Below, in pieces: positions 1,884-57,389 of a stretch of 64,000 nt of DNA. Source of the DNA: Candidatus Aminicenantales bacterium (GTDB taxonomy: Bacteria > Acidobacteriota > Aminicenantia > Aminicenantales > UBA8522). The position numbers and the translations under genes are program-made. The notes under the pieces were generated by a model. The model saw only the letters and a program-made list of their open reading frames with translations. It did not search any database and had not been told where the DNA came from. Position 1 is the stretch's first letter, and the number at the start of each line of letters is the position of its first letter. Location of the stretch: assembly GCA_049287565.1 (NCBI GenBank), contig JBAQGA010000189.1, positions 15,626 to 79,625 of the forward strand, in the 5' to 3' direction.

Positions 1884-3959
1884 ATGAGAGCCATTATTCG
1901 ATCGATCGATGAGGAGGCTGACCAGATGAGAGTGAAAACTTGGCTTTTGACCATTGGCCTCGGGATGTTTCTTGTTCTGTCGCAGATATCGTGTCAGAAG
2001 AACGGGAGAACGGATTATCCTTACAGCGCTGTTCCTCTGGCGGCGGTCGAGCTCATCGACACATTCTGGGCGCCCCGCCTCGAGACCAACCGGGCGGTGA
2101 CGGTCCCGTTCGCCCTCGAGCAATCCGAGTCGACCGGCCGGATCAAGAACTTCGAGATCGCCGGCGGCGCCGCCCAGGGAACGTTCTGCTCGAAGTATCC
2201 TTTCGACGATTCCGATGTTTACAAGATCATCGAAGGCGCCGCTTATTTGCTGATGGTCCATCCGGACCCCGATCTCGAGAAAAAGGTCGACGAGACGATC
2301 GCCAAGATCGCCGCCGCCCAGGAGAAAGACGGCTATCTTTACACGGCCCGGACGATCGACCCGGCCCACCCGCCCGTCGATTGGGTGGGAGAGGGGCGGT
2401 GGTCAAACCTGTACATGAGCCATGAGCTCTATAACCTTGGCCATCTCTACGAGGCGGCGGTCGCCTACAACAGGGCGACGGGCAAAAAAAATCTCCTCAA
2501 TGTCGCTCTCAAGAGCGCGAACCTCGTTGACAGTGTCTTCGGTCCGGGAAAAAAACACGGGACCCCGGGTCACCAGGAGATCGAGATCGGACTGGTCAAG
2601 CTCTATCGCCTGACCGGGAAGAAAAAGTACCTCAACCTGGCCAAGTTCTTCCTGGACGAGCGGGGAAATTCCTCCGACCGCAAGCTCTACGGAGAATATT
2701 CCCAGGACCACAAGCCGATCGTCGACCAGACGGAGGCGGTCGGCCACGCCGTGCGGGCGATGTATATGTACTCCGGGATGACCGATGTGGCGGCCATCAC
2801 CGGGGACGAGGTCTACGTGCGTGCCCTGGACCGAATCTGGGATGATGTCGCCTATAAGAAGATGTATGTCACCGGCGGGATCGGGGCGGCCGGAGGGATC
2901 GAGGGCTTCGGCGCCGCTTACGACTTGCCCAATGCCACCGCCTATTGCGAGACCTGCGCCTCGATCGGCTATGTCCTCTGGAACTGGCGGATGTTTTTGC
3001 TAAAGGGCGATTCCCGGTACATCGATGTCCTGGAGCGAACACTCTATAATGCCTTCCTCTCGGGAGTCGGGATGAGCGGCGACCTTTTCTTCTATCCCAA
3101 CCCCCTCGAATCTTTCGGCCAGTATCGGCGCAGCCCTTGGTTCAACTGCGCCTGCTGTCCGAGCAACATCGTCCGCTTTGTGCCGGAGATCCCCGGATTC
3201 GTCTACGCGACCCGGGACGATTCCCTGTTCGTGAACCTATTCGTCTCCAGCCGGACGAGCCTCACCCTGGGGACCCGCATGGTCAGGGTCGAACAGCAGT
3301 CTCTCTATCCCTGGGAAGGTGAGGTCAAGATCATTCTTCACCCCGAGGAACCGGCCGATTTCGGCATCCATATCCGCGTCCCCGGATGGGCGGTCGGAAG
3401 GCCTGCGCCCGGAGACCTCTACCAGTACGCTGATTTTCAAGAAGGGGCGGTGACGGTGCGGGTTAACGGAGAAACCGTCACTCCGGAGCTCGAACAAGGC
3501 TACGTCCGTCTCAGGAGGACATGGAAGGACGGCGATGCGATCGAGGTCGGGTTCCCCATGCCTGTCCGGAGGATCGTGGCCAATGCTCTTGTCCAGGACG
3601 ATGCCGGAAAGGTCGCCTTGGAGCGCGGGCCGATCGTCTACTGCGCCGAATGGCCGGATAACAGTGGTCATGTCTCCAACCTTGTCCTGCTTGATGATAC
3701 CGTCTTGTCCGCCGAATACCGTGACGACCTGCTCAAAGGGGTGATGGTTGTCAAGGGAGAGGCCACGGCCCTTTCCGCCGGCCGCCGGGCCGGGCAGGTC
3801 GACCGGAGAAGACAGGAGTTTATCGCCATCCCATACTATGCCTGGGCCCACCGCGGGGAAGGTGAGATGACCATCTGGCTGCCCCGTGAAGAGTCGCTGG
3901 CCAGGCCGCTTCCCCGGCCGAGCATTGCTTCGACGAGCAAGGTCCGCGGGCCTTCATGA
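1884..3959 (+). CDS. Glycoside hydrolase family 127 (DUF1680) lipoprotein, second paralog
   Basis: NCACCPSNIVRF GH127 motif; N-terminal signal peptide with lipobox (LSQISC) if the start is the internal ATG at 1926 (GAGGAGG RBS); alternative ATG 1884 has AAGGTGA RBS. Confidence 0.7.
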   Translation: MRAIIRSIDEEADQMRVKTWLLTIGLGMFLVLSQISCQKNGRTDYPYSAVPLAAVELIDTFWAPRLETNRAVTVPFALEQSESTGRIKNFEIAGGAAQGTFCSKYPFDDSDVYKIIEGAAYLLMVHPDPDLEKKVDETIAKIAAAQEKDGYLYTARTIDPAHPPVDWVGEGRWSNLYMSHELYNLGHLYEAAVAYNRATGKKNLLNVALKSANLVDSVFGPGKKHGTPGHQEIEIGLVKLYRLTGKKKYLNLAKFFLDERGNSSDRKLYGEYSQDHKPIVDQTEAVGHAVRAMYMYSGMTDVAAITGDEVYVRALDRIWDDVAYKKMYVTGGIGAAGGIEGFGAAYDLPNATAYCETCASIGYVLWNWRMFLLKGDSRYIDVLERTLYNAFLSGVGMSGDLFFYPNPLESFGQYRRSPWFNCACCPSNIVRFVPEIPGFVYATRDDSLFVNLFVSSRTSLTLGTRMVRVEQQSLYPWEGEVKIILHPEEPADFGIHIRVPGWAVGRPAPGDLYQYADFQEGAVTVRVNGETVTPELEQGYVRLRRTWKDGDAIEVGFPMPVRRIVANALVQDDAGKVALERGPIVYCAEWPDNSGHVSNLVLLDDTVLSAEYRDDLLKGVMVVKGEATALSAGRRAGQVDRRRQEFIAIPYYAWAHRGEGEMTIWLPREESLARPLPRPSIASTSKVRGPS

Positions 3960-4047
3960 ATGGAAGGTAGATTGATAATTGAGCGGGCGGGAATGCGCCG
4001 CGACACCCATCCTATTGTCATCTTGAATGAGGGATTGGAGAAATAGC

Positions 4048-5748
4048 ATGGGAAAAAGGAAATTCGCGCTTGGGCTTGATTTCGGGACGAACTCCGTCCG
4101 GGCGCTCCTGGTCGACGTGGCCGACGGAGGAGAGTTGGCCACAGCGACCCACAATTACGAAACGGGCAGGGACGGGATCATCCTCGATTCCGCCGACCCC
4201 AACCTGGCGCGCCAGAACCCGGCCGATTACGTCCGCGGGACCGAGGCCGTCGTTCGATCGGTACTCTCCAAGGCAAAGAGAGCTGACCAGTCGTTCGATC
4301 CGTCCCGGATCATCGGTATCGGTGTTGACACGACCGGCTCCACTCCGCTTCCCGTGGACAACACCGGGACGCCGCTCGGCTTCCAAAAAAAATTCAAGAA
4401 CAATCCGAACGCCCAGGCCTGGCTCTGGAAGGACCACACCTCCTACGCCGAAGCGGCCATGATCACCGAGCTGGCAGCCGAGGAACATCCCGAGTACCTG
4501 GCGAAATGCGGGGGAACATATTCCTCGGAATGGTTCTTCAGCAAGATCTTTCACTGCCTGCGCGTTGATCCGGGGGTTTTCGACGCCGCCTCGAGCTGGG
4601 TGGAGTGCAGCGACTTCATCCCCGGTCTCCTCACCGGCATCACCGACCCCCTGGTCATGAAGAGAAGCCGCTGCGCCGCCGGCCACAAGGCCATGTTCAA
4701 CGACGCTTGGGGAGGGCTTCCGGCGGAGGATTTTCTGACCCGGCTTCACCCCAAGCTCGGCCGGCTCCGCCGGCGCCTCTATGAGAAGTCGTATTCGTCC
4801 GATAACGTCGCCGGAAAATTGACGCCGCAGTGGGCCCGCCGGACCGGCCTTCCGGCTGGACTGCCGGTCGCCGTCGGCGCCTTCGATGCCCACCTCGGGG
4901 CCGTCGGATCGGGAGCCCGGCCGGGCCGCCTGATCAAGATCATCGGGACGAGCACCTGCGATATCGCCGTCTGGCCCAACAGCCGGCCGCTGGCCGATAT
5001 CCCCGGGCTCTGCGGCATCGTCGACGGGTCGGTCCTGCCCGGCTATTTCGGGCTCGAAGCGGGGCAGTCGGCTGTGGGTGATATCTTCAACTGGTTTGTG
5101 AGCTATATCCGGCCCGGCGGCGCGGCCAAGGGCTCTCACCGGGTCCTGACGGCGGAAGCGGCCAAGCTCCGGCCCGGAGAATCCGGACTCCTCGCCCTCG
5201 ACTGGAACAACGGCAACCGGACCATCCTGGTGGACCAGCGGCTGACCGGCCTCCTTCTGGGTCAGACCCTCCACACCACACCGGGGGAGATCTACCGGAC
5301 GCTAATCGAGGCGACCGCCTTCGGCGCCCTGACCATCATCAACCGCTTCGAGGAATACGGCGTCAAGGTCTCCGAGATCATCAACTGCGGCGGTATCGCC
5401 GAGAAGAACGCGCTCCTGATGCAGATATACGCTGATGTGACCGGACGGGAGATGAAGATCGCCCGCTCCGGCCAGACCTGCGCCCTCGGTTCGGCTATCG
5501 CCGGTGCCGTGGTTGCCGGAAAGGCCAAAGGCGGGTATGATAGTTTCGGCGCGGCTCAGAGGGTCATGTGCGGGATCAAGCCCAGGAGTTTTCGGCCGAA
5601 CAGGGAAGCCCATAGAACTTACAGAGACTTGCATAAGCTCTACGCCCAGCTCCACGATGCCTTCGGCACGAAGACGTGGTCGGGAAACCTGCACAACGTG
5701 ATGAAAGACCTTCTGGCCGTCCGGGACCGGCAGAGAAGGAGCGGCTGA
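4048..5748 (+). CDS. araB: L-ribulokinase (FGGY carbohydrate kinase family)
   Basis: KFALGLDFGTNSVRALLVD N-terminal FGGY motif, ~565 aa, AraB-like throughout; GGAG RBS before ATG 4048; stop overlaps araD start (ATGA at 5746-5750). Confidence 0.85.
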   Translation: MGKRKFALGLDFGTNSVRALLVDVADGGELATATHNYETGRDGIILDSADPNLARQNPADYVRGTEAVVRSVLSKAKRADQSFDPSRIIGIGVDTTGSTPLPVDNTGTPLGFQKKFKNNPNAQAWLWKDHTSYAEAAMITELAAEEHPEYLAKCGGTYSSEWFFSKIFHCLRVDPGVFDAASSWVECSDFIPGLLTGITDPLVMKRSRCAAGHKAMFNDAWGGLPAEDFLTRLHPKLGRLRRRLYEKSYSSDNVAGKLTPQWARRTGLPAGLPVAVGAFDAHLGAVGSGARPGRLIKIIGTSTCDIAVWPNSRPLADIPGLCGIVDGSVLPGYFGLEAGQSAVGDIFNWFVSYIRPGGAAKGSHRVLTAEAAKLRPGESGLLALDWNNGNRTILVDQRLTGLLLGQTLHTTPGEIYRTLIEATAFGALTIINRFEEYGVKVSEIINCGGIAEKNALLMQIYADVTGREMKIARSGQTCALGSAIAGAVVAGKAKGGYDSFGAAQRVMCGIKPRSFRPNREAHRTYRDLHKLYAQLHDAFGTKTWSGNLHNVMKDLLAVRDRQRRSG

Positions 5749-43301: not shown

Positions 43302-43817
43302 TCAGGTTTCTTTTCCCGAGATTCTTTCGTCCAATTTCCTGCGTAAAGCCTCTCTTTTGTCCTTGGTGTCTAAATAGATCTGGAGGTTGAGGATTTCCTC
43401 GGCGATGGCGTTCGCCACCTGATTTATAGCGGCCGCGCCTCCCTCTCTTTTAAAATCTTCGCCCGTGATATCGTGGACAAAGAAAAGTAGCTCCCGATTG
43501 ATCACGGGTCCGAGCATGCCTCCGGGGTCTGGAACAATGACCAGCTTGGTTATGGCCAGGATGCGGCTAAGGCGAGCATAAAAAACCGCGTCGATTTCAC
43601 CCGCCTCCCGCGCTTTCCTGAGCTCGGAAGCCATCTTGAGAAGAGTCGGTTCCAGATCGTCCGTGGTCCCCTTCGTAACCATATCCCGGAAGCTGACGAT
43701 GAACAGGTCGAGGAGTACATAACCGGTCTTCTCTTTGGCGTTGGCCGGATTGTCCATGGCCGCGAGATTAAAAGAAAAAAGAGCCAGAAATCCGAACAGC
43801 AATATCTTTTTCGCCAT
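43302..43817 (-). CDS. Secreted hypothetical protein (signal peptide), last gene of the ECF sigma operon
   Basis: MAKKILLFGFLALFSFNLAA signal peptide if start 43817; no family recognised. Confidence 0.45.
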   Translation of the reverse strand: MAKKILLFGFLALFSFNLAAMDNPANAKEKTGYVLLDLFIVSFRDMVTKGTTDDLEPTLLKMASELRKAREAGEIDAVFYARLSRILAITKLVIVPDPGGMLGPVINRELLFFVHDITGEDFKREGGAAAINQVANAIAEEILNLQIYLDTKDKREALRRKLDERISGKET

Positions 43818-43818
43818 C

Positions 43819-44376
43819 TCATACCTCCTTGGAATCATATTTGAATAACAGGAGTGCGCGCTCGATCGCTCTTTCTTTGAAGAGGATCTCCATTTTTTGA
43901 TCGAGGCTCAAACGCGGAACCTTGACGGGCCCCGCCGGAATAGAAATCCCTTGTTCCTCCCGCCTTTTAATCTTTTCGGCTGAGACCAGCACCCGCCGGA
44001 CCGATTCGGCCAGCCTGGATGTCTCGGTTTGGCCGAGGGGTGCCGTCGCGTTCTCTCTTGGGCGATAAGAGAATCCGGGAAGTTGACCGAGGGCAGATGC
44101 AAGGGCCTTGAATTCTGGCGGCGGGCCCGCTCCAGGACGTTTCAGAATAGAAAAGAAGATCCCCGCCATGATCAAGACCAGGACCGTTGCAAGCACAGGG
44201 ACGGCTCTTACCTGGGAAAGAATGGGCGGCTTTTTGCCGCCGGCCTCCCCCTTGAGGTGGGTCTCCACCCTGTCCCGGAAATTTCTGGTGCGGAAGAAGG
44301 CCAGGCCATCTTCTTCTTCCTGTCTTATCAAGGCAGAGATGTCCCCGAAATCATGATCCGTCAGGTCATTTTTCAT
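43819..44376 (-). CDS. Putative membrane-anchored anti-sigma factor
   Basis: 185 aa, a single central TM (VPVLATVLVLIMAGIFFSIL), overlaps the ECF sigma stop by 11 nt. Confidence 0.5.
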   Translation of the reverse strand: MKNDLTDHDFGDISALIRQEEEDGLAFFRTRNFRDRVETHLKGEAGGKKPPILSQVRAVPVLATVLVLIMAGIFFSILKRPGAGPPPEFKALASALGQLPGFSYRPRENATAPLGQTETSRLAESVRRVLVSAEKIKRREEQGISIPAGPVKVPRLSLDQKMEILFKERAIERALLLFKYDSKEV

Positions 44377-44848
44377 CGTTCCCCTCGTTCATGCCATCCA
44401 GCACCGCCCTGCGGGCGCGGTTCAGACGGGACATCACCGTCCCTTGCTTGAGGCCCAGGGTTTCGACCAGCTCTGCATAAGAAAGGTGTCCGTACTCCCG
44501 CAAGACAAAGACCTCCTTTTGTTTTCCCGGAAGGCGACGGACAGCCTCTTTGAGTTTGACCAGGCGTTCCCGTGTATCCAAGTGCTCGTGCTGATTGGGA
44601 TTCTCCCGGGCATCGTCCGAAGTCACGCTCCTCTGAAAAAGACGGAAGAGCCGCCTTTCTTTCTGATGGTCGAGGCAGGTGTTCCGGGCGATCCGAAGTA
44701 GCCACGCTCTCAGGGCGGCGGGCTCGTGGACCGATCCGATCTTACGAAAGGCCTTGAGGTAGACTTCCTGGGTCAGATCTTCGGCATCTAACGGATTCCG
44801 GGAGAATCCCAGGCAGATCCGGAAGACGTCTTCCCGGTAGGTCATCAT
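44366..44848 (-). CDS. ECF (group 4) RNA polymerase sigma factor
   Basis: Sigma-2 (DLTQEVYLKAFRK) and sigma-4 (LSYAELVETLGLKQGTVMSRLNRAR) regions; preferred start ATG 44848 has a GAGGAA SD (ORF track extends to 44902). Confidence 0.8.
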   Translation of the reverse strand: MMTYREDVFRICLGFSRNPLDAEDLTQEVYLKAFRKIGSVHEPAALRAWLLRIARNTCLDHQKERRLFRLFQRSVTSDDARENPNQHEHLDTRERLVKLKEAVRRLPGKQKEVFVLREYGHLSYAELVETLGLKQGTVMSRLNRARRAVLDGMNEGNDEK

Positions 44849-44909
44849 TTCCTCAGTTAGGCGAGCCGCTTTTTCTGTCCTTGCCATGCGTCTTGTGTTC
44901 ATTAGGAAA

Positions 44910-46966: not shown

Positions 46967-47392
46967 ATGGACGAGAAATTCAGGTTCCTTGACCACACGG
47001 CCGACGCCAAATTCCAGGCCTTCGGCCGCACGCTCGAGGAAGCCTTCGCCAACGCCGCCCTGGCCACCGTCTCCCTGATGTGGGAGCCGGAGAAGGTGGA
47101 GAAAAAAGTCGACCATCCGATGAGCGTCCAAGGTCGGGACCTGGAACAACTGCTTGTCCGATTTCTAGGAGAGGTCATTTATTTGTGGGAGACCCGGTCC
47201 TTTCTGACGGCGGCGGCCGAAAACATCGTCATCGAGCCGGCCGGAGACGGTTTCCATCTCCACGCTCTTTTCCAGGGCGATGACCGGCCCGAGAAATACG
47301 CGATCTTTGGTGAGGTCAAGGCCGTCACTTACAACGAAATGAAGATCGGACGCGGCCGCCCCGTCTCCGTTCAGGTGGTGCTGGATATTTGA
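46967..47392 (+). CDS. Archease
   Basis: 141 aa; FRFLDHTADAKFQAFGRTLEEAF N-terminal signature of archease. Confidence 0.8.
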   Translation: MDEKFRFLDHTADAKFQAFGRTLEEAFANAALATVSLMWEPEKVEKKVDHPMSVQGRDLEQLLVRFLGEVIYLWETRSFLTAAAENIVIEPAGDGFHLHALFQGDDRPEKYAIFGEVKAVTYNEMKIGRGRPVSVQVVLDI

Positions 47393-47400
47393 GGTGAGAT

Positions 47401-48822
47401 ATGGAGCTCCTCAGAAAAAGTGATTTCGTCTGGGAAATTCCCCCCCACGGGGAGATGAAGGTCCCGGCGACGATCTATGCCTCGTCGCGCCTGTTGGAAA
47501 GCGTCAGGAACGACCTGACCCTGCAGCAGGCCCGGAATGTCGCCTGCCTGCCGGGCATCCAGCGGATGTCCTACGTCATGCCCGACGGCCACCAGGGCTA
47601 CGGCTTTCCGATCGGCGGGGTGGCGGCCTTCGATCTGGACCAAGGGATCATCTCGCCGGGAGGGGTTGGCTACGACATCAATTGCGGGGTGAGGCTGCTG
47701 CGGACTGATTTCTCGGAGAGAGACATCGCCGCGAAACGGAAGGAGCTCCTGGCCGAGATCTTTAAGGAGGTGCCGGCCGGAGTGGGGAAGGGCGGGATCA
47801 CCCGGCTCAGCCGGAACGTGCTCAAGGATATCCTGATCAAGGGCGCCGAATGGGCCGTCGAGAACGGCTACGGTGCCAAGGACGACCTGCTGATGACCGA
47901 GGAATACGGCCGGATGAAGGACGCCGATCCCGCCGGGGTTTCGCCACGCGCTCTGGAAAGAGGCATCCCCCAGCTTGGTACGCTCGGCGCGGGAAACCAC
48001 TTTTTGGAAATCCAGAAGGTCTCCGATATCTATGACCAGGCACTGGCTCGAATTTTCGGCATCCGGGCCATCGGCCAGGTTATGGTCATGATCCACTGCG
48101 GCAGCCGCGGCCTCGGCCACCAGGTCGCCACCGACTATATCGAGCTCATGGAGAACAGGTTCGGGACACGGGGGCTTCCCGACAGGGAATTGATCAATGC
48201 GCCCGTCCGGTCGCCGCTCGGCCGGCAGTATTACAAGTCCATGTGCGCCGCGGTTAATTACGCTTTCGCCAACCGCCAGATGATCGCCCACTGGGTTCGG
48301 GAAGTCTTTTCCAGGGTCATGGGCTGCGCCAAGGATATGAGTCAGGTCTATGACGTCTGCCACAACGTCGCCAAGATCGAAAGGCATCTGATCGAAGGGA
48401 AGGAGCGCGAGGTCTGCGTCCACCGCAAGGGTGCGACCCGGAGCTTCGGCCCGGGTCGGCCGGAGATCCCCGAGGTTTACCGGCCGCACGGTCAGCCGGT
48501 GATCATCCCCGGCAGCATGGGGACGGCATCCTATCTTCTTGTCGGTACCGCGGAAGCCGAAGGATTGAGTTTTAGCTCGACGGCCCACGGCGCCGGAAGG
48601 CTCATGTCCCGGCATGAGGCGCTTCGCCGCTTCCGCGGCGAGCAGATCCGCGACGAGCTGCAGAGGAAGGGGATCGAGCTCCAGTCGACGAGCTGGAAAG
48701 GGGTGGCCGAAGAAGCGCCAGGCGCCTATAAGGATGTAGACGAAGTGGTCAGGGTTTCCCACGAGGTTGGGATCGGCCGGCTGGTCGCCCGGGTCGTCCC
48801 GATGGGAGTGATGAAAGGATAA
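47401..48822 (+). CDS. rtcB: RNA-splicing ligase RtcB
   Basis: MPDGHQGYGFPIGGV and NHFLE... metal-binding His motifs; 473 aa; directly downstream of archease. Confidence 0.9.
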   Translation: MELLRKSDFVWEIPPHGEMKVPATIYASSRLLESVRNDLTLQQARNVACLPGIQRMSYVMPDGHQGYGFPIGGVAAFDLDQGIISPGGVGYDINCGVRLLRTDFSERDIAAKRKELLAEIFKEVPAGVGKGGITRLSRNVLKDILIKGAEWAVENGYGAKDDLLMTEEYGRMKDADPAGVSPRALERGIPQLGTLGAGNHFLEIQKVSDIYDQALARIFGIRAIGQVMVMIHCGSRGLGHQVATDYIELMENRFGTRGLPDRELINAPVRSPLGRQYYKSMCAAVNYAFANRQMIAHWVREVFSRVMGCAKDMSQVYDVCHNVAKIERHLIEGKEREVCVHRKGATRSFGPGRPEIPEVYRPHGQPVIIPGSMGTASYLLVGTAEAEGLSFSSTAHGAGRLMSRHEALRRFRGEQIRDELQRKGIELQSTSWKGVAEEAPGAYKDVDEVVRVSHEVGIGRLVARVVPMGVMKG

Positions 48823-48836
48823 ACCCACATCACCGG

Positions 48837-49331
48837 TCAGGTGATGACCTTGTCAATGTCCTTCTCGGCGTAATCCTCGAACTGAAGAGCCAGCGTGTAT
48901 TCGCTGCGCAGCATGAGATAGTGGCTGTTTTCGACATGACTCAGGTAGACGAGCATTTTTTTGTTCGGTTCCGGGACCCTCTTGGCGAGAGCGGCATAGA
49001 AATCCCGGGCTGATTTCTCCCCGTTCATCGCCTGTCCGAGGATGTCGGCCAGGCTTGAGGACGGCTTGATGACGACCGCGGGGAGGAGGCGCTGGTCCAC
49101 GGTCTTGGGGATCTCGGGCTTTTCTTTCCCGTAGAGGGAGGCAAACATCCGTCTGAGGATCTCCTTGTGTTTTCTTTCTTCCAGAGCCAGGACCCGGAAT
49201 TTTTCCTTGAGCAGGGGGTTTTTCAGCCGGCCGGCCATCCTCGTGTAGATTGTGTTGGCGTCCATTTCCGCCCTGATGGCGTAGCCCAGCAGCTTTTTTA
49301 CGGATTGTCTAGCGATACTGATCATGAACAT
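48837..49331 (-). CDS. Ferritin-like diiron-carboxylate protein (COG1633-like), paralog C
   Basis: 164 aa; EERKHKEIL and ENSHYLM ExxH pairs; similar in length and pattern to paralogs A and B. Confidence 0.55.
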   Translation of the reverse strand: MFMISIARQSVKKLLGYAIRAEMDANTIYTRMAGRLKNPLLKEKFRVLALEERKHKEILRRMFASLYGKEKPEIPKTVDQRLLPAVVIKPSSSLADILGQAMNGEKSARDFYAALAKRVPEPNKKMLVYLSHVENSHYLMLRSEYTLALQFEDYAEKDIDKVIT

Positions 49332-49510: not shown

Positions 49511-51217
49511 CTACCTCAGCTTCTTCTTGAGCCGGCTCCAGGGGAGACAGTTCAAGATGTCCTTTTTTTCCAGCCAGGCGCGCCGCGCGATGCCGACGCC
49601 GAAGCGCATCATCCCGAGCCCCTCGGCCGAATGAGTATCCGTGCCGAGCGAGATCATGACACCGAGGTCCCTGGCTCGCTTGAGATAGAACTCGTTGAGG
49701 TCCAAGCGGTCGTAGTAAGAATTGAGCTCGAGGGCCTTACCGAGGCGCCGGGCGCCTGCCAGGACGGCCTCCAGGTCGACCTCATATCCCTCCCGCCCCG
49801 AGATCAGTCGGCCCGTCGGGTGGCCGATGATGTCAAGATGGGGATTCTCCATGGCCTTGAGCATCCGGGCGGTGACGTTCTTCTTGAATCCGGAGTGGAT
49901 CGATCCCACGACGACGTCGAGCCGGGCCAGGAGGTGATCGGGGAAGTCGAGCGAGCCGTCGGCCAGGATATCCATCTCCGTCCCCTTCAGAAGCCGGATT
50001 CCCTTCAACCGTCTATTGAGCGCCTCGATCTCCTTCATCTGCCGGCGGAGCCGGTCGGGCGTCAGACCGCCGGCATACTTAGCCGCCTGGCTGTGGTCGC
50101 AAATGGCGATGTAGGTGTAGCCGCGCCGGCGAGCGAGATCGGCTAGGCCCGAGAGGCTGACATGGCCGTCGCTCCAGTCCGAATGGACGTGGAGGTCGCC
50201 CCGGATATGGGCGTTAGCGATGAGATCCGGCAGCCGGCCTTCGAGGGCCAGTTCGATTTCGCCCCGGTCCTCGCGCATCTCGGGCGGGATGAAAGGAAGG
50301 CCCAGGACGGCGTAGACCTCGCTCTCGTCCCGGCCGGCGATTTTCCTGGAGCCGCGGAAGACGCCGTACTCGGAGATCTTGAGCCCTTTGTCCTTGGCCA
50401 GGCCGCGGAGCTTGATATTGTGGGCTTTTGAGCCGGTGAAATACTGGAGGGCGGCCCCGTACTCCTGGTCGGCGACGATGCGGAGGTCGACCTGGCGCTC
50501 ACCTGTCTCGGTCGCGATCATGACCGAGCCTTTTGTTGTGCCCGCTGCGAGAACACGGCTGATTCTGGGGAACCGGGTGAAATAGCGGACGATCGAGGCG
50601 CCGTCCTTTCCGCCGGCCAGGATATCGATATCGCCGACGGACTCCTTCATCCGGCGGAGCGAACCGGCCGGGGAGAGGCGGCCGATCCCCGGAGCGCCGG
50701 CCAGATAGGCGATGATGTCCTCGGCCACGGCCAGGGCCTCGTAGATGGGGATCCGCTCCTGGGCTTTCTCGTAGATTTCGATCCCTTTGCGGATGTTCTC
50801 CACTTTCTTGTCGCCCATTCCGTGGAGGGAGGCGAGGGTGCCATCCCGGATAGCCCTTTTCAGGTCGGCGATTCCCTGGACGCCGAGCTCTTTCTGCATC
50901 AGGTGGACCGTCTTGGCGCCGAGATTCTGGACGTTGAGGAGCTCGAAGAGCGATTCGGGGATACCGGAGAGGGCGTCCCGGTGTTTTTTCATCCGGCCGG
51001 TCTGGACGTATTCCTCGATCTTCGAGGCGATGCCGCTGCCGATGCCCTCGATCTCCTCCAGCCGCTTTTCGCGGGCGACGGTCTCGATGTCTTCGCTCAG
51101 GTCCTCGAGAATGCGGGCGGCCTTGCGGTAGGCGAGGATTTTAAATGGCAGTTCTCCCTTGATCTCCAGCGCGTCGGCGATACGGGAAAAAATCGCGGCC
51201 ACTTCCTTGTTTCTCAT
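49511..51217 (-). CDS. polX: DNA polymerase X family protein with C-terminal PHP phosphoesterase domain
   Basis: N-terminal MRNKEVAAIFSRIADALEIKGE...FKILAYRKAAR HhH PolX signature; C-terminal HVHSDWSDG PHP motif. Confidence 0.85.
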   Translation of the reverse strand: MRNKEVAAIFSRIADALEIKGELPFKILAYRKAARILEDLSEDIETVAREKRLEEIEGIGSGIASKIEEYVQTGRMKKHRDALSGIPESLFELLNVQNLGAKTVHLMQKELGVQGIADLKRAIRDGTLASLHGMGDKKVENIRKGIEIYEKAQERIPIYEALAVAEDIIAYLAGAPGIGRLSPAGSLRRMKESVGDIDILAGGKDGASIVRYFTRFPRISRVLAAGTTKGSVMIATETGERQVDLRIVADQEYGAALQYFTGSKAHNIKLRGLAKDKGLKISEYGVFRGSRKIAGRDESEVYAVLGLPFIPPEMREDRGEIELALEGRLPDLIANAHIRGDLHVHSDWSDGHVSLSGLADLARRRGYTYIAICDHSQAAKYAGGLTPDRLRRQMKEIEALNRRLKGIRLLKGTEMDILADGSLDFPDHLLARLDVVVGSIHSGFKKNVTARMLKAMENPHLDIIGHPTGRLISGREGYEVDLEAVLAGARRLGKALELNSYYDRLDLNEFYLKRARDLGVMISLGTDTHSAEGLGMMRFGVGIARRAWLEKKDILNCLPWSRLKKKLR

Positions 51218-51274: not shown

Positions 51275-51303
51275 TTGACATTTCTTGAGACTGTTTCTAT
51301 TTT
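51275..51303 (+). promoter_or_regulatory. Predicted sigma-70 promoter TTGACA-N17-TATTTT upstream of the tandem thyX-like gene (near-leaderless)
   Basis: TTGACA 51275-51280, 17-nt spacer, TATTTT 51298-51303; ATG at 51313 only about 10 nt downstream. Confidence 0.35.
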
Positions 51304-51312
51304 AAGACAATC

Positions 51313-52833
51313 ATGAAGGTCGTTCTAGCGGGTTACAATGTCGATAAAGAGGTCATCGACGACCTCAAGCGCCATTCCCCGCCGCGGGACGACGTAACGC
51401 CGGAGACTTTGTCCGCGTCCTACGCCCGCATTTCCCGCGATCCCCGCCCGGCCGACGAGCTCCGGGCCGTCGCCCGCCGTGAGGTGGAGCGGGCCCGCCG
51501 CTCCAACCAGACCATCATCTTCAAAATGGGGCACCACTCGGTGGCCGAACATGCCGTCTTCAATTTCGATATCATCGGCCTGAGCCGGTTGGCCCTGGAG
51601 GAGATCGAGAAGTTCCGGCTCTGCTCCTACACCGAAAAGTCGCAGCGCTACATCATGCTGGGCGATGATTTCGTCGTCCCCGAAGAGGTCCGGAAAGCGC
51701 GGCTGGAGAGGGTCTTCCTGAAGACCATCCGGGCACAGAACGCTCTCTACCACTCCCTTTACTCCAGATTGAAGCCATACCTTTTTATTAAATACAAGGA
51801 CCTCGCTCAAGACCCCCGGAACCACCCTGTCCTCGAAGGCTGGGCGAAAGAGGACGCCCGGTACGTGGTCAGCCTAGCGACCGAGGGCCAGGTCGGCCTG
51901 ACCATCAACGCCCGTAACCTCGAGCTCCTGATTCGGCGGTTTGCCGCCAAAAAAATGGCCGAGCTCCGGGAACTGAACCAACGGATCTACCGGCTGGCCA
52001 AGGAAGTCGCCCCCTCCATCATCCTTTTCACCGAGGCGTCGGATTTTGACGCCCGGACGTATGGGGAGCTGGAGGATGCGGCCCGGACCCTTTTTGAGAG
52101 GACGAAAGGCCGACCGAGGAAAGAGTCTCCCGCCGTCCGGAGCGGTGAGGAGTCCGTATCCTTGGCGGACACGACACCGGGGGGAGACGACCGGATCCTA
52201 GCGGCCATCCTCCATACGGCCAGCTCGATGCCCTACGAACAGGGCCTGAGGAGAGTCCGGTGGATGACACCGGCCGAGAAGAAGGATCTGGTCAAGACGG
52301 CCTTCCGCCGCCAGGAGTTTTACGATTTCCCCCTCCGCGAATTCGAATTTGCCGACCTGACCTTCTCGCTGGTCGTCTCGGCTTCCTGCTTCGCCCAGCT
52401 CAAGCGCCACCGTATGGCCACGCTGACCTGCCAGAGATATGATCCCGCGCTCGGGGTCACTGTGCCACCGACTGTTGAGGAGGTTGGCGCCGAACCCGAG
52501 TTCCGGCGGATGGTCGGCCAGACGGAAGAAACGCACGCGCTACTTCAAAAAAAGATCGGACCGGAGGCGGCCGCTTACGTGCTGATGAACGCACATCGCC
52601 GCCGCGTCCTGTTCAAAGTCAATGTCCGGGAACTCTATCACATCTCCCGGCTCCGCGAAGATCCCACGGCGCAATGGGAGATCAGGGAGGCCGTCGGCCG
52701 GATGTCCGCGCTGGCCCGTAAGGAAGTGCCCTTGAGTTGTCTTCTCCTCGGAGGGAAAAACCGGTATCCCGGCATCTACCGAAAAGTATTCGGCATGAAT
52801 CCCAGGTTGTCCTCGCCCAAGCTCCTCAAATAA
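51313..52833 (+). CDS. Tandem-duplicated flavin-dependent thymidylate synthase (ThyX)-like protein
   Basis: The first half has GHHSVAEHAVFNF...KFRLCSYTEKSQRY, which is ThyX-like with a Ser but RHR replaced by KFR; the second half has LKRHRMATLTCQRY and AQWEIRE, which is ThyX-like with RHR intact but Ser replaced; 506 aa is about twice ThyX size. Confidence 0.6.
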   Translation: MKVVLAGYNVDKEVIDDLKRHSPPRDDVTPETLSASYARISRDPRPADELRAVARREVERARRSNQTIIFKMGHHSVAEHAVFNFDIIGLSRLALEEIEKFRLCSYTEKSQRYIMLGDDFVVPEEVRKARLERVFLKTIRAQNALYHSLYSRLKPYLFIKYKDLAQDPRNHPVLEGWAKEDARYVVSLATEGQVGLTINARNLELLIRRFAAKKMAELRELNQRIYRLAKEVAPSIILFTEASDFDARTYGELEDAARTLFERTKGRPRKESPAVRSGEESVSLADTTPGGDDRILAAILHTASSMPYEQGLRRVRWMTPAEKKDLVKTAFRRQEFYDFPLREFEFADLTFSLVVSASCFAQLKRHRMATLTCQRYDPALGVTVPPTVEEVGAEPEFRRMVGQTEETHALLQKKIGPEAAAYVLMNAHRRRVLFKVNVRELYHISRLREDPTAQWEIREAVGRMSALARKEVPLSCLLLGGKNRYPGIYRKVFGMNPRLSSPKLLK

Positions 52834-52937: not shown

Positions 52938-55292
52938 ATGAAAAATGGCCTGCGGCCCGAAGAAAACGAAAAAAAGCCCGTCACCGAGCTGGCCCGGGAC
53001 ATGAGCCTGATGCATGTGACCATGATCGGCGTCGGGGCTATGATCGGGGCCGGGATATTCGTCCTGACGGGTATCGCCGCCGGTGTCGCCGGGCCGGCTT
53101 TGATCCTTGTCTTTCTTCTCAACGGTTTCGTCACCGGATTGACGGCCATGTCGTATGCGGAGCTCGGGTCCTGTTTTCCGGAGGCCGGCGGCGGGTATCT
53201 CTGGGTCAAGCAAGCTCTTCCCCAGCCTAACGGTTTTCTGTCAGGATGGGTCAGTTGGTTCGCCCATGCCGTCGCCTGCAGCCTGTATGCCGTTGCCTTC
53301 GGGGCTTTCAGCGTCGACCTGCTATCTGTCGCCGGCATTGATGTCGGCAGGCTCGTCTCTCCCTTGGGTGTCCATGAAGAGCCGCACGTCCTGGCCGCCA
53401 AACTGATCGCCGTCTGCATCACGCTGCTTTTTGTCTATATAAACTATCGCGGCGCCAAAGAGACAGGGCAAGCGGAATCCGTCGTCACTATGCTCAAGCT
53501 CATCATCATCGGGCTCTTCATCGCTTTCGGCGTCTATGCCATCTTCGCCGGGAAAGTCGATCATCCTTGGCAGAGCCAGTTCAGCGGCTTTTTTCAAAAG
53601 GGGCCGCTCGGCATCATCATTGCCATGGGGCTGACTTTCATCGCCTTCGAAGGTTACGAGATCATCGCCCAGTGCGGGGAAGAGGTGAAAAATCCGAAGC
53701 GGAACATTCCTCGCTCGATCTTTCTCTCACTTCTGATCGTCTTGCCCATCTACCTGCTGGTCGCTTTTGTCGCTCTCGGAGCCGTCGCCCCGGAAGGAAA
53801 CGTACCGACCTGGCAGTATCTCGGGCAGAAAGGTGAGTTGGCGATGATAGAGGCGGCCGAGCACTTCATGATGGGCAAATTGGGGAGAATCATCTTTTTA
53901 ATCGGCGGGCTGTTCTCGACCATGTCCGCCCTCAATGCCACGGTTTATTCCTCATCCAGGGTCAGCTTCGCCATGGGCCGTGATCACAATCTTCCCGGCC
54001 TGTTCGCCAAGATACATCAAAAGAAGAGGACTCCCCACTTGGCCGTTTTCATTTCCGGCGGGCTGATTATCCTGATGGCCGTGGCCCTGCCGATCGAGGA
54101 CATCGCCAGCGCCACCGACGCCATGTTCCTCCTTCTTTTTATTTTCGTCAACTTGGCGGTCATCAACCTTCGCAAGAACCGTCCGGACCTCGACCGCGGT
54201 TTCAAAGTTCCTCTATTTCCCATCATCCCGATTGTGGCGACCTTCCTGAACCTGGTTCTGGCCGTTTTTCTGTTTTTCTACCGGCCTCTGGGGATCTTTG
54301 TCTGTGTGGGTTATCTCGTCTTCGGCATCCTTCTTTACTATTTCTACTCGCGAAAGAAAGAATTCGTGGCCAAGGCCGTGCCCGTCGTTCATGCCGAGCA
54401 TCCCCTCACAGTCCCCGATCCGCGTCATTTCCACATCATCGTCCCAGTGGCCAATGAAAAAACCGTCGGCCAGCTGCATGGGGTTGCCGTTCCCCTCGCC
54501 AAGGCCTATCAGGCGGATATCACCGCCCTCAACGTGATCCAGGTTCCCGCCCAGCTCCCGCCGAGCGAAGGACGCAAGTACATCAGCCGGTCGCGGGACC
54601 TCCTCGCCAAAGCCGTGGACTATGCCGAGAAAGAGGACATCCCCGTCTATTCTTTGGTCAAGCTGACCCATAATGTTCCCAAGGCCATTATCGAGACCTG
54701 CACGGCACGGAAGATCGACCTGATGATCCTTGGCTGGGAGGGTGAGAAGAGCGCTTACGACCGGGTCTTCGGAACCAAGCTCGACGAGATCATCCTCAAT
54801 ACGGTCTGCGACCTCGCTCTCATCTGTCGGGCGCCCTCCCCTGATGTGGAGATTGGCAGAGTCCTGATTCCGGTGAGCAACATCCGTTATGCCATCCTCT
54901 CGCTCAAGATGGCCGAAGCTCTCCGCCCGGATCAGGGCACTCCCATCGTCCTTTTTCACGCGACTTATCAAGAGGATATTGAGGCCGTCCAGAGCCGCTT
55001 CAGAAATGACCTTATGAAGATGAAGGATGAGGTCACTCCCGAGCGCTACCAGGTACTCGTCAGGAAAACAACGAGTGTTCTCGGCGCCATCCTGACCGAG
55101 ATCCAGTACCGAGACCTGCTCATCATGGGGGCGCCTGAAGAAGGGCTGGTCCGGAGGGCGCTGTTCGGGGATCTTCCCGTCCGGATCGCTCAAGAGACCG
55201 AGGTCCCGTTGATCCTGACCAAAAAGTACACCGGACATGTCAAGTCCTGGTTCCAGAAATTTTTCGGGTCCCGGAAGACGATGTTAGATTGA
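52938..55292 (+). CDS. APC-family amino acid permease fused to C-terminal tandem universal stress protein (UspA) domains
   Basis: ~12 TM with N-terminal MIGVGAMIGAGIFVLTG APC motif; the ~300 aa C-terminal cytosolic region has two Usp-like repeats (HIIVPV...LILGWEG; VLIPV...LLIMG). Confidence 0.75.
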   Translation: MKNGLRPEENEKKPVTELARDMSLMHVTMIGVGAMIGAGIFVLTGIAAGVAGPALILVFLLNGFVTGLTAMSYAELGSCFPEAGGGYLWVKQALPQPNGFLSGWVSWFAHAVACSLYAVAFGAFSVDLLSVAGIDVGRLVSPLGVHEEPHVLAAKLIAVCITLLFVYINYRGAKETGQAESVVTMLKLIIIGLFIAFGVYAIFAGKVDHPWQSQFSGFFQKGPLGIIIAMGLTFIAFEGYEIIAQCGEEVKNPKRNIPRSIFLSLLIVLPIYLLVAFVALGAVAPEGNVPTWQYLGQKGELAMIEAAEHFMMGKLGRIIFLIGGLFSTMSALNATVYSSSRVSFAMGRDHNLPGLFAKIHQKKRTPHLAVFISGGLIILMAVALPIEDIASATDAMFLLLFIFVNLAVINLRKNRPDLDRGFKVPLFPIIPIVATFLNLVLAVFLFFYRPLGIFVCVGYLVFGILLYYFYSRKKEFVAKAVPVVHAEHPLTVPDPRHFHIIVPVANEKTVGQLHGVAVPLAKAYQADITALNVIQVPAQLPPSEGRKYISRSRDLLAKAVDYAEKEDIPVYSLVKLTHNVPKAIIETCTARKIDLMILGWEGEKSAYDRVFGTKLDEIILNTVCDLALICRAPSPDVEIGRVLIPVSNIRYAILSLKMAEALRPDQGTPIVLFHATYQEDIEAVQSRFRNDLMKMKDEVTPERYQVLVRKTTSVLGAILTEIQYRDLLIMGAPEEGLVRRALFGDLPVRIAQETEVPLILTKKYTGHVKSWFQKFFGSRKTMLD

Positions 55293-55298
55293 GTCGAC

Positions 55299-57389
55299 GT
55301 GTCCATCCTCCACAAATCCAAGCAGCTCAAGAAAGAGCTTGGATTTTTCAACGTTTACGCCATCGCCACCGGAGCGACGATCGCCTCCGGCTTCTTCCTG
55401 CTCCCCGGACTCGCCGCCGCGCAGGCCGGCCCGGCGGTCGTATTGAGCTACTTGATCGCCGCTTTCCCCGTCATTCCCGCCATCTTCAGCATGGCGGAAC
55501 TGTCCACCGCGATGCCCCGGGCCGGGGGGATCTATTATTTTCTCGATAGGAGCATGGGACCGTTCTGGGGGACGCTCGGAGGAGTGGGGACCTGGCTAGC
55601 GCTCATCCTCAAGGCCGCTTTTGCTCTCATCGGCATCGGGGCCTACCTGAGTGTTTTCCTGCCGCAGATTCCCCTCCTGCCGCTGACGGCCGGATTCGCC
55701 TTTTTCTTCGGTTTGCTCAATCTCCTGGGCGCGAAAAAAACCGGGACTTTTCAGGCCTTTCTCGTCCTCGGATTGCTCGTCCTTCTCATCTGGTTCGTCG
55801 GGACGGGCCTTCCCGTGATCAGGCTGGACCGTTTCTTGGGCTTCTTTGACCGAGAATTCAGGACGATACTCGGAACCGCCGGGATGGTTTTTGTGAGCTA
55901 CATCGGTCTGACCCAGATCGCCAGCGTTTCCGAGGAGGTCAAGAACCCGGAGAGGAACATCCCCAGAGGCATGTTGGCCGCCTTCGGTACGGCCCTGTTC
56001 GTCTATCTCGTAGGCACATTTATCATGGTCGGCGCCTTGCCGTCCGCCGAGCTCGCCGGTGACCTCACTCCCGTCGCCACCACCGCCGGCGTCACCGTCG
56101 GACGATGGGGAATGATCGTAGTCAGCGTCGCAGCCATCCTGGCTTTCTTTTCGGTAGCCAATGCCGGGATCCTGAGCGCTTCCCGCTACCCCCTCGGCAT
56201 GAGCAGGGACCATCTCATGCCGCGATTTTTCCGCAACCTGACCGGGCAGAAGGTTCCGCGGAACTCGATCTTCATCACCGTCGTCCTGATCCTCGTCGTC
56301 TTGTTTTTTCTCAACCCGGTCAAGATCGCCAAACTGGCCAGCGTATTCCAGCTTTTTCTGTTCGCCCTGAGCTCGCTGGCCGTCATCATCATGAGGGAGA
56401 GCCGGATCGATTCCTACGACCCCGGATTCCGCTCGCCGTTTTATCCGTGGATACAGGTCTTTGGGATCCTGGCTTCTTTTTGGCTGATCGTCGAAATGGG
56501 CTGGACTCCCGTCCTTTTCACCTTAGGCCTGACGGCCGTGGGGTCCGGGTGGTATTTTTATTACGGCCGGAAGCGGGTGGTCCGAAGCGGTGCCATCTAC
56601 CATATTTTTTCCCGGCTGGGAGAGCGCCGTTTCGATGGACTGGACCGCGAACTCCGGGGAATCCTGAAGGAAAAGGGAGTCAGGGAGCGAGATCCTTATG
56701 ATATCGTCATCGCCAGAGCCCCGGTCATCGACTTTCATCAGCCCCTGAACTTCGATGAGGTCGTCCGTCAGGCCGCCACGAAGCTGGCCGAGACGTTGAA
56801 GGTCAACCGGCACATTTTTGAGGAGGGTTTTATGGAGGGCACTCGCGTCGGAGCCACGCCGGTCTCCCATGGGGCCGCCCTTCCTCACCTCCGGCTTCCC
56901 GATATCCATCATCCCGAACTCATCATCGTCCGCTCGTCCGCCGGTGTCAAGGTGGACGTCGACGATGAGTGCCTGGGCGAACATGCCTCTCCCTTTCCCG
57001 TCCATGCGTTTTTCTTCCTCGTCAGCCCGGAGGAAGACCCCGGACAACACCTCCGCATCCTGGCCCAGATCGCCAGCCATGTGGACGACGAGTCGTTCAT
57101 CAACCGCTGGTTATCGGCCGAGGATTCCCACGACCTCAAGGAGATACTGCTTCGGGACGATCGATATCTGATCCTGACCCTGCGTTCCGGAGAGAAATCA
57201 GCCGTCCTGTCGGGCCGGTTGGTCTCGGAGTTGCATCTTCCCAAAGGCTGCTTGATTGCTCTGATTCACAGAAAAGGGGAGACGATCATCCCCACGGGAG
57301 ATACGCGGCTCGAAGAAGAGGACAGCTTGACGATCATCGGCTATCCGGAAGTGATCAAAGATCTCTATTTGCTCTACGCCGAGGAATAG
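55299..57389 (+). CDS. APC-family amino acid permease fused to C-terminal PTS EIIA(Ntr)-like and TrkA-C (RCK_C) domains
   Basis: GTG start; 12 TM with YAIATGATIASGFFLLPG motif; C-terminal HLRLPDIHHPELIIV EIIA-type-2-like segment with conserved His, then a TrkA-C-like segment (LSGRLVSELHLPKGCLIALIHRKGETIIPTGDTRLEEEDSLTIIG). Confidence 0.7.
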   Translation: MSILHKSKQLKKELGFFNVYAIATGATIASGFFLLPGLAAAQAGPAVVLSYLIAAFPVIPAIFSMAELSTAMPRAGGIYYFLDRSMGPFWGTLGGVGTWLALILKAAFALIGIGAYLSVFLPQIPLLPLTAGFAFFFGLLNLLGAKKTGTFQAFLVLGLLVLLIWFVGTGLPVIRLDRFLGFFDREFRTILGTAGMVFVSYIGLTQIASVSEEVKNPERNIPRGMLAAFGTALFVYLVGTFIMVGALPSAELAGDLTPVATTAGVTVGRWGMIVVSVAAILAFFSVANAGILSASRYPLGMSRDHLMPRFFRNLTGQKVPRNSIFITVVLILVVLFFLNPVKIAKLASVFQLFLFALSSLAVIIMRESRIDSYDPGFRSPFYPWIQVFGILASFWLIVEMGWTPVLFTLGLTAVGSGWYFYYGRKRVVRSGAIYHIFSRLGERRFDGLDRELRGILKEKGVRERDPYDIVIARAPVIDFHQPLNFDEVVRQAATKLAETLKVNRHIFEEGFMEGTRVGATPVSHGAALPHLRLPDIHHPELIIVRSSAGVKVDVDDECLGEHASPFPVHAFFFLVSPEEDPGQHLRILAQIASHVDDESFINRWLSAEDSHDLKEILLRDDRYLILTLRSGEKSAVLSGRLVSELHLPKGCLIALIHRKGETIIPTGDTRLEEEDSLTIIGYPEVIKDLYLLYAEE

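Follow-up and report, generated by a model that had tools for sequence, protein, structure and literature searches.

A fused double-domain ThyX from an Aminicenantales bacterium, with active-site motifs partitioned between its halves and probably two composite sites per dimer

We examined a 64,000-nucleotide stretch of DNA (hereafter the window) from a Candidatus Aminicenantales bacterium (GenBank assembly GCA_049287565.1, contig JBAQGA010000189.1, positions 15,626 to 79,625 of the forward strand), in which a single unbroken open reading frame (ORF) at 51313-52833 on the plus strand encodes a protein of 506 amino acids (aa) plus stop. On the evidence of its sequence and of its relatives, this gene probably encodes a flavin-dependent thymidylate synthase, ThyX, consisting of two fused and long-diverged ThyX domains. 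The protein is likely the thymidylate synthase of the organism, acting as a dimer that contains two composite active sites, and we would, with about the same confidence, expect it to synthesize deoxythymidine monophosphate (dTMP).

The presence of two ThyX domains in one polypeptide had been proposed in a first-pass annotation of the window, made from the letters alone, and was borne out when each half was compared to reference profiles. The whole protein contains two segments that match the Pfam family Thy1/ThyX (PF02511; 212 bits), and separate profile searches of the halves, which that annotation had put forward as a check, detected Thy1 in both, with E = 7.1e-34 and 117.7 bits for aa 1-250 and E = 5.1e-29 and 101.9 bits for aa 251-506 (cut-off 24.8). 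The NCBIfam thyX equivalog TIGR02170 scores 136 bits against the whole protein, above its cut-off of 87.9, and each half alone scores under that value. The full ORF (51313..52833) thus annotated by Pfam Thy1 and TIGR02170 as a fused double-domain ThyX is also 100% identical to an NCBI protein from a metagenome-assembled genome (MAG), annotated as 'FAD-dependent thymidylate synthase [Candidatus Aminicenantales bacterium]' (FAD, flavin adenine dinucleotide). The protein has the three-dimensional ThyX fold, and the possibility that one of the halves lacks this fold does not apply, both being ThyX domains.

Residues are numbered here after Thermotoga maritima (Tm) ThyX, whose sequence is identical to that of PDB entry 1kq4, and all features of the gene lie on the plus strand. 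The N-terminal domain (aa 1-250, 51313..52062) is the source of the active-site loop, the His53 equivalent, the folate loop and the Arg147 equivalent. It is joined by a weakly conserved linker of variable length (aa 251-285, 52063..52167) to the C-terminal domain (aa 286-506, 52168..52830), the source of Gln75, the RHR motif, Arg174 and the QWE helix, which is without equivalents of His53, the Ser-loop and Arg147. Within the N-terminal domain, ASYARISRDPRP (aa 35-46, 51415..51450) is the equivalent of the T. maritima folate loop, with Y37, A38, R39, I40, S41 and R42 invariant in the family alignment (A3) and S41 aligning with its equivalent, Tm S30. GHHSVAEH (aa 73-80, 51529..51552) supplies H74, equivalent to Tm His53, together with E79 and H80, equivalent to Tm E58 and H59. 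In EIEKFRLCSYTEKSQRY (aa 97-113, 51601..51651), a degenerate RHR (K100-F101-R102) precedes an intact loop whose E108, S110, R112 and Y113 correspond to Tm E86, S88, R90 and Y91, while KEDARY (aa 179-184, 51847..51864) carries E180 and R183 (Tm E144 and R147) and TINARNLE (aa 197-204, 51901..51924) carries N199 and R201 (Tm N163 and R165).

The C-terminal domain presents the counterpart of this arrangement. In QLKRHRMATLTCQRY (aa 362-376, 52396..52440), Q362 is the equivalent of Tm Q75 and R365-H366-R367 form the RHR of the ThyX motif, with a 2-residue deletion removing the positions of Glu86 and Ser88. N437 and R439 (Tm N163 and R165) and R448 (Tm Arg174) are found in KVNVRELYHISRLR (aa 435-448, 52615..52656), and DPTAQWEIRE (aa 450-459, 52660..52689) is the conserved AQW(D/E)IR helix, restricted to the C-half; the N-half has MAE where the C-half carries these helix residues. 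The motif details given in the first-pass annotation were exact, both for a first half with a GHHSV core and KFR-x7-S instead of RHR, and for a second half with RHR and AQWEIRE and no Ser.

Conservation, counted over 151 diverse fused proteins sharing 35-53% identity with the query, follows the same partition. In the N-half, the equivalents of H53, R80, E86, S88 and R90 are present in all 151 proteins, those of H59, E144 and R147 in 150, E58 and R165 in 149, Y91 in 147 and N163 in 143. The positions of Q75, R78 and H79 vary freely there, with KFR, HFR, RFR, HHR and other combinations arising at the first two RHR positions and RHR itself in only 3/151, and the R174 position is semi-variable. 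In the C-half, E58, each residue of R78-H79-R80, and R174 are present in all 151 proteins, Q75, R165, Q180 (Q454) and W181 (W455) in 150, Y91 in 147 and N163 in 143. The H53, H59, R90, E144 and R147 positions of this half are variable, with P, D, N or S at the R90 equivalent, and its RHR segment is 15 residues long in 149/151 proteins, the E86/S88 positions being deleted, versus 17 residues in the N-half. The residues lost in one half are invariant in the other.

Combined, the halves hold the full set of residues that contact substrates and cofactors in ThyX (Tm S30, H53, Q75, R78, H79, R80, E86, S88, R90, Y91, R147, N163, R165 and R174), each 95-100% conserved in whichever half retains it. 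No contiguous RHR-x7-S motif exists inside either domain, and a complete one arises only when the two are combined. Because the complementary conservation is family-wide, we conclude that the asymmetry between N- and C-halves dates back to the ancestor of the entire family and is maintained by strong purifying selection. The suggestion that the protein may not be a thymidylate synthase at all, also raised by the first-pass annotation, finds no support, since every canonical residue contacting a substrate or cofactor is present once in the composite; nor are the FAD-binding residues missing from both halves.

The fusion itself recurs well outside the window. Each of the 120 top-ranking database relatives is a full-length protein of ~500 aa from an independent assembly, at 66-91% identity, and hundreds of independent assemblies, closed multi-megabase contigs included, show the unbroken ~500-aa architecture. 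Neither a DNA-level repeat nor a composition break was found at the domain junction. Compared to each other, the two halves reach only E = 0.04 by BLASTP, and hhalign aligns them in register over 135 columns at 25% identity (97.2% probability, E = 3.5e-11). Given this recurrence across assemblies, a homology between halves detectable only at the profile level, and a junction without repeat or composition break, we read the fusion as both ancient and real. An artefact, in the form of an assembly join or of a frameshift merging two adjacent thyX genes, is an a priori possibility for any MAG contig, which is all that speaks for it; the uninterrupted architecture in hundreds of independent assemblies, the featureless junction and the ancient divergence of the two halves make it extremely improbable, and the recurrence excludes the artefactual joining of two genes against which the first-pass annotation had cautioned. 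A recent tandem duplication was also considered, and is ruled out by the lack of a DNA-level repeat and the BLASTP comparison between halves.

Canonical ThyX forms a D2 homotetramer with four sites, each lined by three monomers, and Tm R147 is the arginine that binds the phosphate of deoxyuridine monophosphate (dUMP). In the T. maritima enzyme, S30 hydrogen-bonds the flavin C4=O and H53 stacks on the folate or flavin, R78 stabilises the reduced flavin, and the E86 backbone and S88 contact the isoalloxazine, with S88 and Y91 being critical (PMC11940539). R174 activates dUMP, and S88A, R90A and Y91A mutants are strongly impaired (PMC8316439). Two mutually exclusive sets of essential residues, each strongly selected, would have to meet in trans. 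In the arrangement we propose, one polypeptide would stand for two 'monomers' out of four, so that pairing two chains as an (N-C)2 homodimer would rebuild a pseudo-tetramer. The C-domain would contribute Gln75, Arg78-His79-Arg80 (contacting the flavin N1/phosphate and the dUMP phosphate) and Arg174 (dUMP activation), one N-domain would contribute the active-site loop (Glu86, Ser88, Arg90 and Tyr91) and Arg147, and the other N-domain would contribute His53 and the folate loop.

If the D2 sites are taken as (A,B,C) = (1,2,3), (2,1,4), (3,4,1) and (4,3,2), with positions 1 and 4 occupied by C-halves and positions 2 and 3 by N-halves, the sites would be (C,N,N), (N,C,C), (N,C,C) and (C,N,N), i.e. 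two (C,N,N) sites with every canonical residue and two (N,C,C) sites with none of the three sets. Since a canonical site draws on three monomers, half of the four sites in an (N-C)2 dimer should be complete and the other half dead, and we infer that the protein is probably a dimeric pseudo-tetramer with two working sites instead of four. The overall reaction would be dUMP + methylenetetrahydrofolate (CH2-H4folate) + reduced nicotinamide adenine dinucleotide phosphate (NADPH) -> dTMP. Sub-functionalised halves building fewer but complete sites, as the first-pass annotation had envisaged, are supported by the complementary conservation in the 151 members, from which the stoichiometry and the activity would follow.

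The same asymmetry might instead reflect one catalytic domain accompanied by a structural pseudo-enzyme scaffold, or all four sites might be active despite the substitutions. Some weight is lent to these readings by the clearly higher conservation of the N-half (mean identity to the query of 50% vs 40% for the C-half, with 36 vs 14 columns conserved at >=97%) and by the retention of R80, N163 and R165 in both halves. However, nearly all N-halves are without R78 and H79, and because Q75 is moreover variable and R174 semi-variable there, N-halves alone would be unable to form a canonical site. The 99-100% conservation of Q75, RHR, R174 and QW in the C-half would likewise be unexpected for a mere scaffold, while four active sites are difficult to reconcile with a C-half in which the Ser loop is deleted and R147 and H53 are lost, so that any site needing them from a C-half cannot be canonical. 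We consider this pair of readings unlikely, and favor two composite sites per dimer.

Structure prediction gave a confident monomer. An AlphaFold2 (AF2) model built from a shallow alignment (31 sequences at >=66% identity) reached a predicted local distance difference test (pLDDT) score of 49 and was discarded, and a wider alignment of 113 more diverse sequences was used, yielding a pLDDT of 85.7 and a predicted template modelling (pTM) score of 0.83. The low-confidence segments were the linker (pLDDT <50 at aa 270-277), the N-half folate-loop equivalent and the N-half His53 region, and pLDDT was very high for the C-terminal domain. The folate loop and the His53 region are flexible in T. maritima ThyX (PMC11940539), and the low pLDDT of the folate-loop equivalent is as expected for a flexible loop. 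No solved structure of a fused ThyX chain was found in the PDB, and the identity of the 506-aa protein to solved ThyX proteins is only ~20%.

A phmmer search over 1.84 billion cluster representatives recovered 433 clusters (50% identity) at E <= 1e-30, and the best 150 matches were almost all 460-570 aa long and aligned over their full length at 37-53% identity. When one genome of each GTDB species was scanned, a relative was identified in at least 561 species. The lineages represented include Aminicenantes/Acidobacteriota, Omnitrophota, Syntrophaceae, Thermodesulfobacteriota, Elusimicrobiota, WOR-3, Auribacterota and some archaeal MAGs, with further matches labelled as Nanoarchaeota (DPANN archaea), Syntrophales, Smithella and Gemmatimonadota. 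No cultured or chlamydial member was found among the named matches from the distant query, the family profile and the cluster look-ups, all of which carry MAG labels. Fused ThyX proteins form a very large, ancient and under-studied subfamily that is widespread in uncultured anaerobes.

Two members of the subfamily are interrupted by independent inteins, both located inside invariant N-half active-site motifs. In P0189 (797 aa), an Intein_splicing domain (E = 7e-17) lies between HRLC and SFTEKSQRY, within the N-half RHR/Ser-loop motif, and in P0265 (795 aa), a LAGLIDADG-containing insert stands right behind the His53 equivalent (GFGHA/SVAEH, split after GFGHA). Inteins typically target functionally essential motifs.

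Several variants of the architecture were observed. A large subgroup (e.g. P0122, P0125 and P0223) carries an insertion of ~25-35 residues near the N-terminus, between the first strand and TPE..YARISR, which is absent from the window protein. Four shorter proteins, P0186 (250 aa), P0136 (329 aa), P0248 (236 aa) and P0261 (291 aa), consist of the N-half only, at 61-73% identity, and could be either contig-end fragments or genuine split two-gene versions. Among viral sequences, 11 IMG/VR contigs (L081-L091; e.g. L081 at 3001-4482 and L082 at 3001-4428) encode a full-length fused ThyX with 32-49% identity and the same pattern of N- and C-half motifs, and the remaining viral matches are single-domain ThyX proteins. 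Several of these 11 contigs are 340-470 kb long and could represent jumbo phages, giant viruses or cellular contamination.

The genomic neighborhood of thyX is of a core housekeeping type and gives no hint of any other function. A PolX-family DNA polymerase gene with a PHP domain (49511-51217, minus strand) is divergent from thyX and is followed by a rubrerythrin-like gene (48837-49331, minus strand), and the other genes nearby in the window comprise two amino-acid permease fusions, tyrS, purN, purL, purQ and purB. Just 5' of the thyX start codon, a consensus scan tentatively points to a promoter-like site, TTGACA-17-TATTTT (51275..51303, plus strand), as weak evidence of a promoter. The arrangement of PolX and thyX with rubrerythrin is shared by many loci from Aminicenantes, in which RtcB and archease often lie further upstream. 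Across 80 related loci, the best from the scan of GTDB species, only lineage-specific housekeeping synteny was seen (RtcB, archease, PolX, rubrerythrin, tyrS, purN and purL), and neither a functional partner conserved across phyla nor a biosynthetic cluster was found.

This context bears on a further alternative, namely that the protein is a neofunctionalised ThyX paralogue, either a C5-methylase or hydroxymethylase acting on uridine or deoxycytidine monophosphate (UMP or dCMP) like PolB, or a non-catalytic flavoprotein. We regard this as quite unlikely, since the residues of ThyX that contact dUMP, flavin and folate are all present once and invariant in the composite, the neighborhood is of a housekeeping type without a biosynthetic cluster, and the gene is conserved as a single copy in hundreds of species from many phyla. 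A domain-duplicated, uncharacterised ThyX is, moreover, reported to be the only thymidylate synthase in most Chloroflexi, those outside Dehalococcoides (Valas & Bourne 2009, PMC3224940). A table of clusters of orthologous groups (COG) for Acidobacteria lists ThyX in 6/6 and ThyA in 0/6 (PMC5954106).

Several points qualify the reading of the protein as the thymidylate synthase of its host with two composite sites per dimer. We found no biochemical or structural data for members of the fused family in the literature and structures searched. The proposed interface between the halves, and the proposed assignment of R78, Q75 and R174 to one chain and of the Ser loop and R147 to another, are drawn from published descriptions and from the T. 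maritima complexes. A tblastn search of the 64-kb window and of the 80 related loci (~9 kb each), which together make up a small fraction of any genome, detected neither ThyA nor a second ThyX. The Chloroflexi duplicated ThyX described in PMC3224940 may belong to the same subfamily as the present proteins. Finally, both halves retain R80, N163, R165, E58 and Y91, so that binding of FAD or a nucleotide may persist at the 'dead' sites.

In canonical ThyX no domain is dedicated to binding NADPH, and the substrates compete for a single cavity. The pseudo-sites of the fused protein, lined by the N-half KFR, the loop-deleted C-half and the C-half without His53, might have been repurposed, e.g. to serve as a dedicated pocket for binding NAD(P)H or FAD, for allostery or for nucleotide sensing. 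This is a speculative and rather improbable extension of the two-composite-site arrangement; if true, it would make the protein a mechanistically distinct, regulated ThyX and not merely a half-sites version.

Other genes around thyX were noted in passing. Downstream, two consecutive amino-acid permease genes (52938-55292 and 55299-57389, plus strand) carry unusual C-terminal regulatory fusions, one with a universal stress protein domain and the other with PTS EIIA-2 and TrkA-C. On the minus strand, a 484-aa ORF (47371-48828) has no Pfam match, and the same is true of two ORFs of ~180 aa (43302-43838 and 43819-44376) located directly downstream of an extracytoplasmic function (ECF)-type sigma-70 gene (44366-44902). 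The products of these two ORFs could be anti-sigma factors or other factors associated with it.

ThyX is a target for antibacterial drugs and a textbook example of active sites to which three subunits contribute. With the three contributions fixed in different domains, the fused proteins offer a natural asymmetric system for dissecting subunit roles, which is made easier because single-site mutations are possible without mixed tetramers. They also illustrate cleanly how an essential enzyme can evolve by duplication, fusion and sub-functionalisation, and may be relevant to the targeting of ThyX by drugs. C. trachomatis ThyX (CT632), at ~529 aa, would be a biochemically active double-length ThyX; it was reportedly characterised by Griffin et al. 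2005 (JBC; cited in PMC2386288). Should chlamydial ThyX be of the fused type, inhibitor design should consider asymmetric sites. Chlamydial ThyX was too divergent for the original ThyX phylogeny, from which it was left out (PMC6171736).

The fused architecture is already known and is routinely annotated as ordinary ThyX, and it was remarked on in 2009. Full-text literature searches returned no study of fused ThyX apart from one remark in PMC3224940, where the domain-duplicated protein was noted without sequence analysis, and the family described here is far larger than the 'few other species' mentioned there. A complementary partition of the active site between halves was not described in the literature searched. 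The window protein is an ordinary member of this known but under-studied subfamily, and its chemistry is expected to be ordinary; fused ThyX is not a new kind of system, but a natural experiment in sub-functionalised shared active sites. Compared to the canonical homotetrameric ThyX/FDTS (flavin-dependent thymidylate synthase) proteins of PF02511 and TIGR02170, such as T. maritima TM0449, M. tuberculosis Rv2754c and those of H. pylori and PBCV-1, it has two domains per chain, with the RHR-x7-S motif split between them, and is predicted to form a dimer with two complete sites, not a tetramer with four identical ones. It also differs from PolB, a Streptomyces UMP/dUMP methylase (PDB 4p5a), which is single-domain and encoded inside a nucleoside-antibiotic gene cluster, whereas here there is neither such a cluster context nor substrate-loop evidence. 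A parallel is found in the monomeric herpesvirus dUTPases and other duplicated-and-fused oligomeric enzymes, which are unrelated in fold and chemistry and analogous in evolutionary mechanism only: in these, likewise, a shared-site oligomer has become a fused pseudo-oligomer, with motifs partitioned between the halves and fewer sites.

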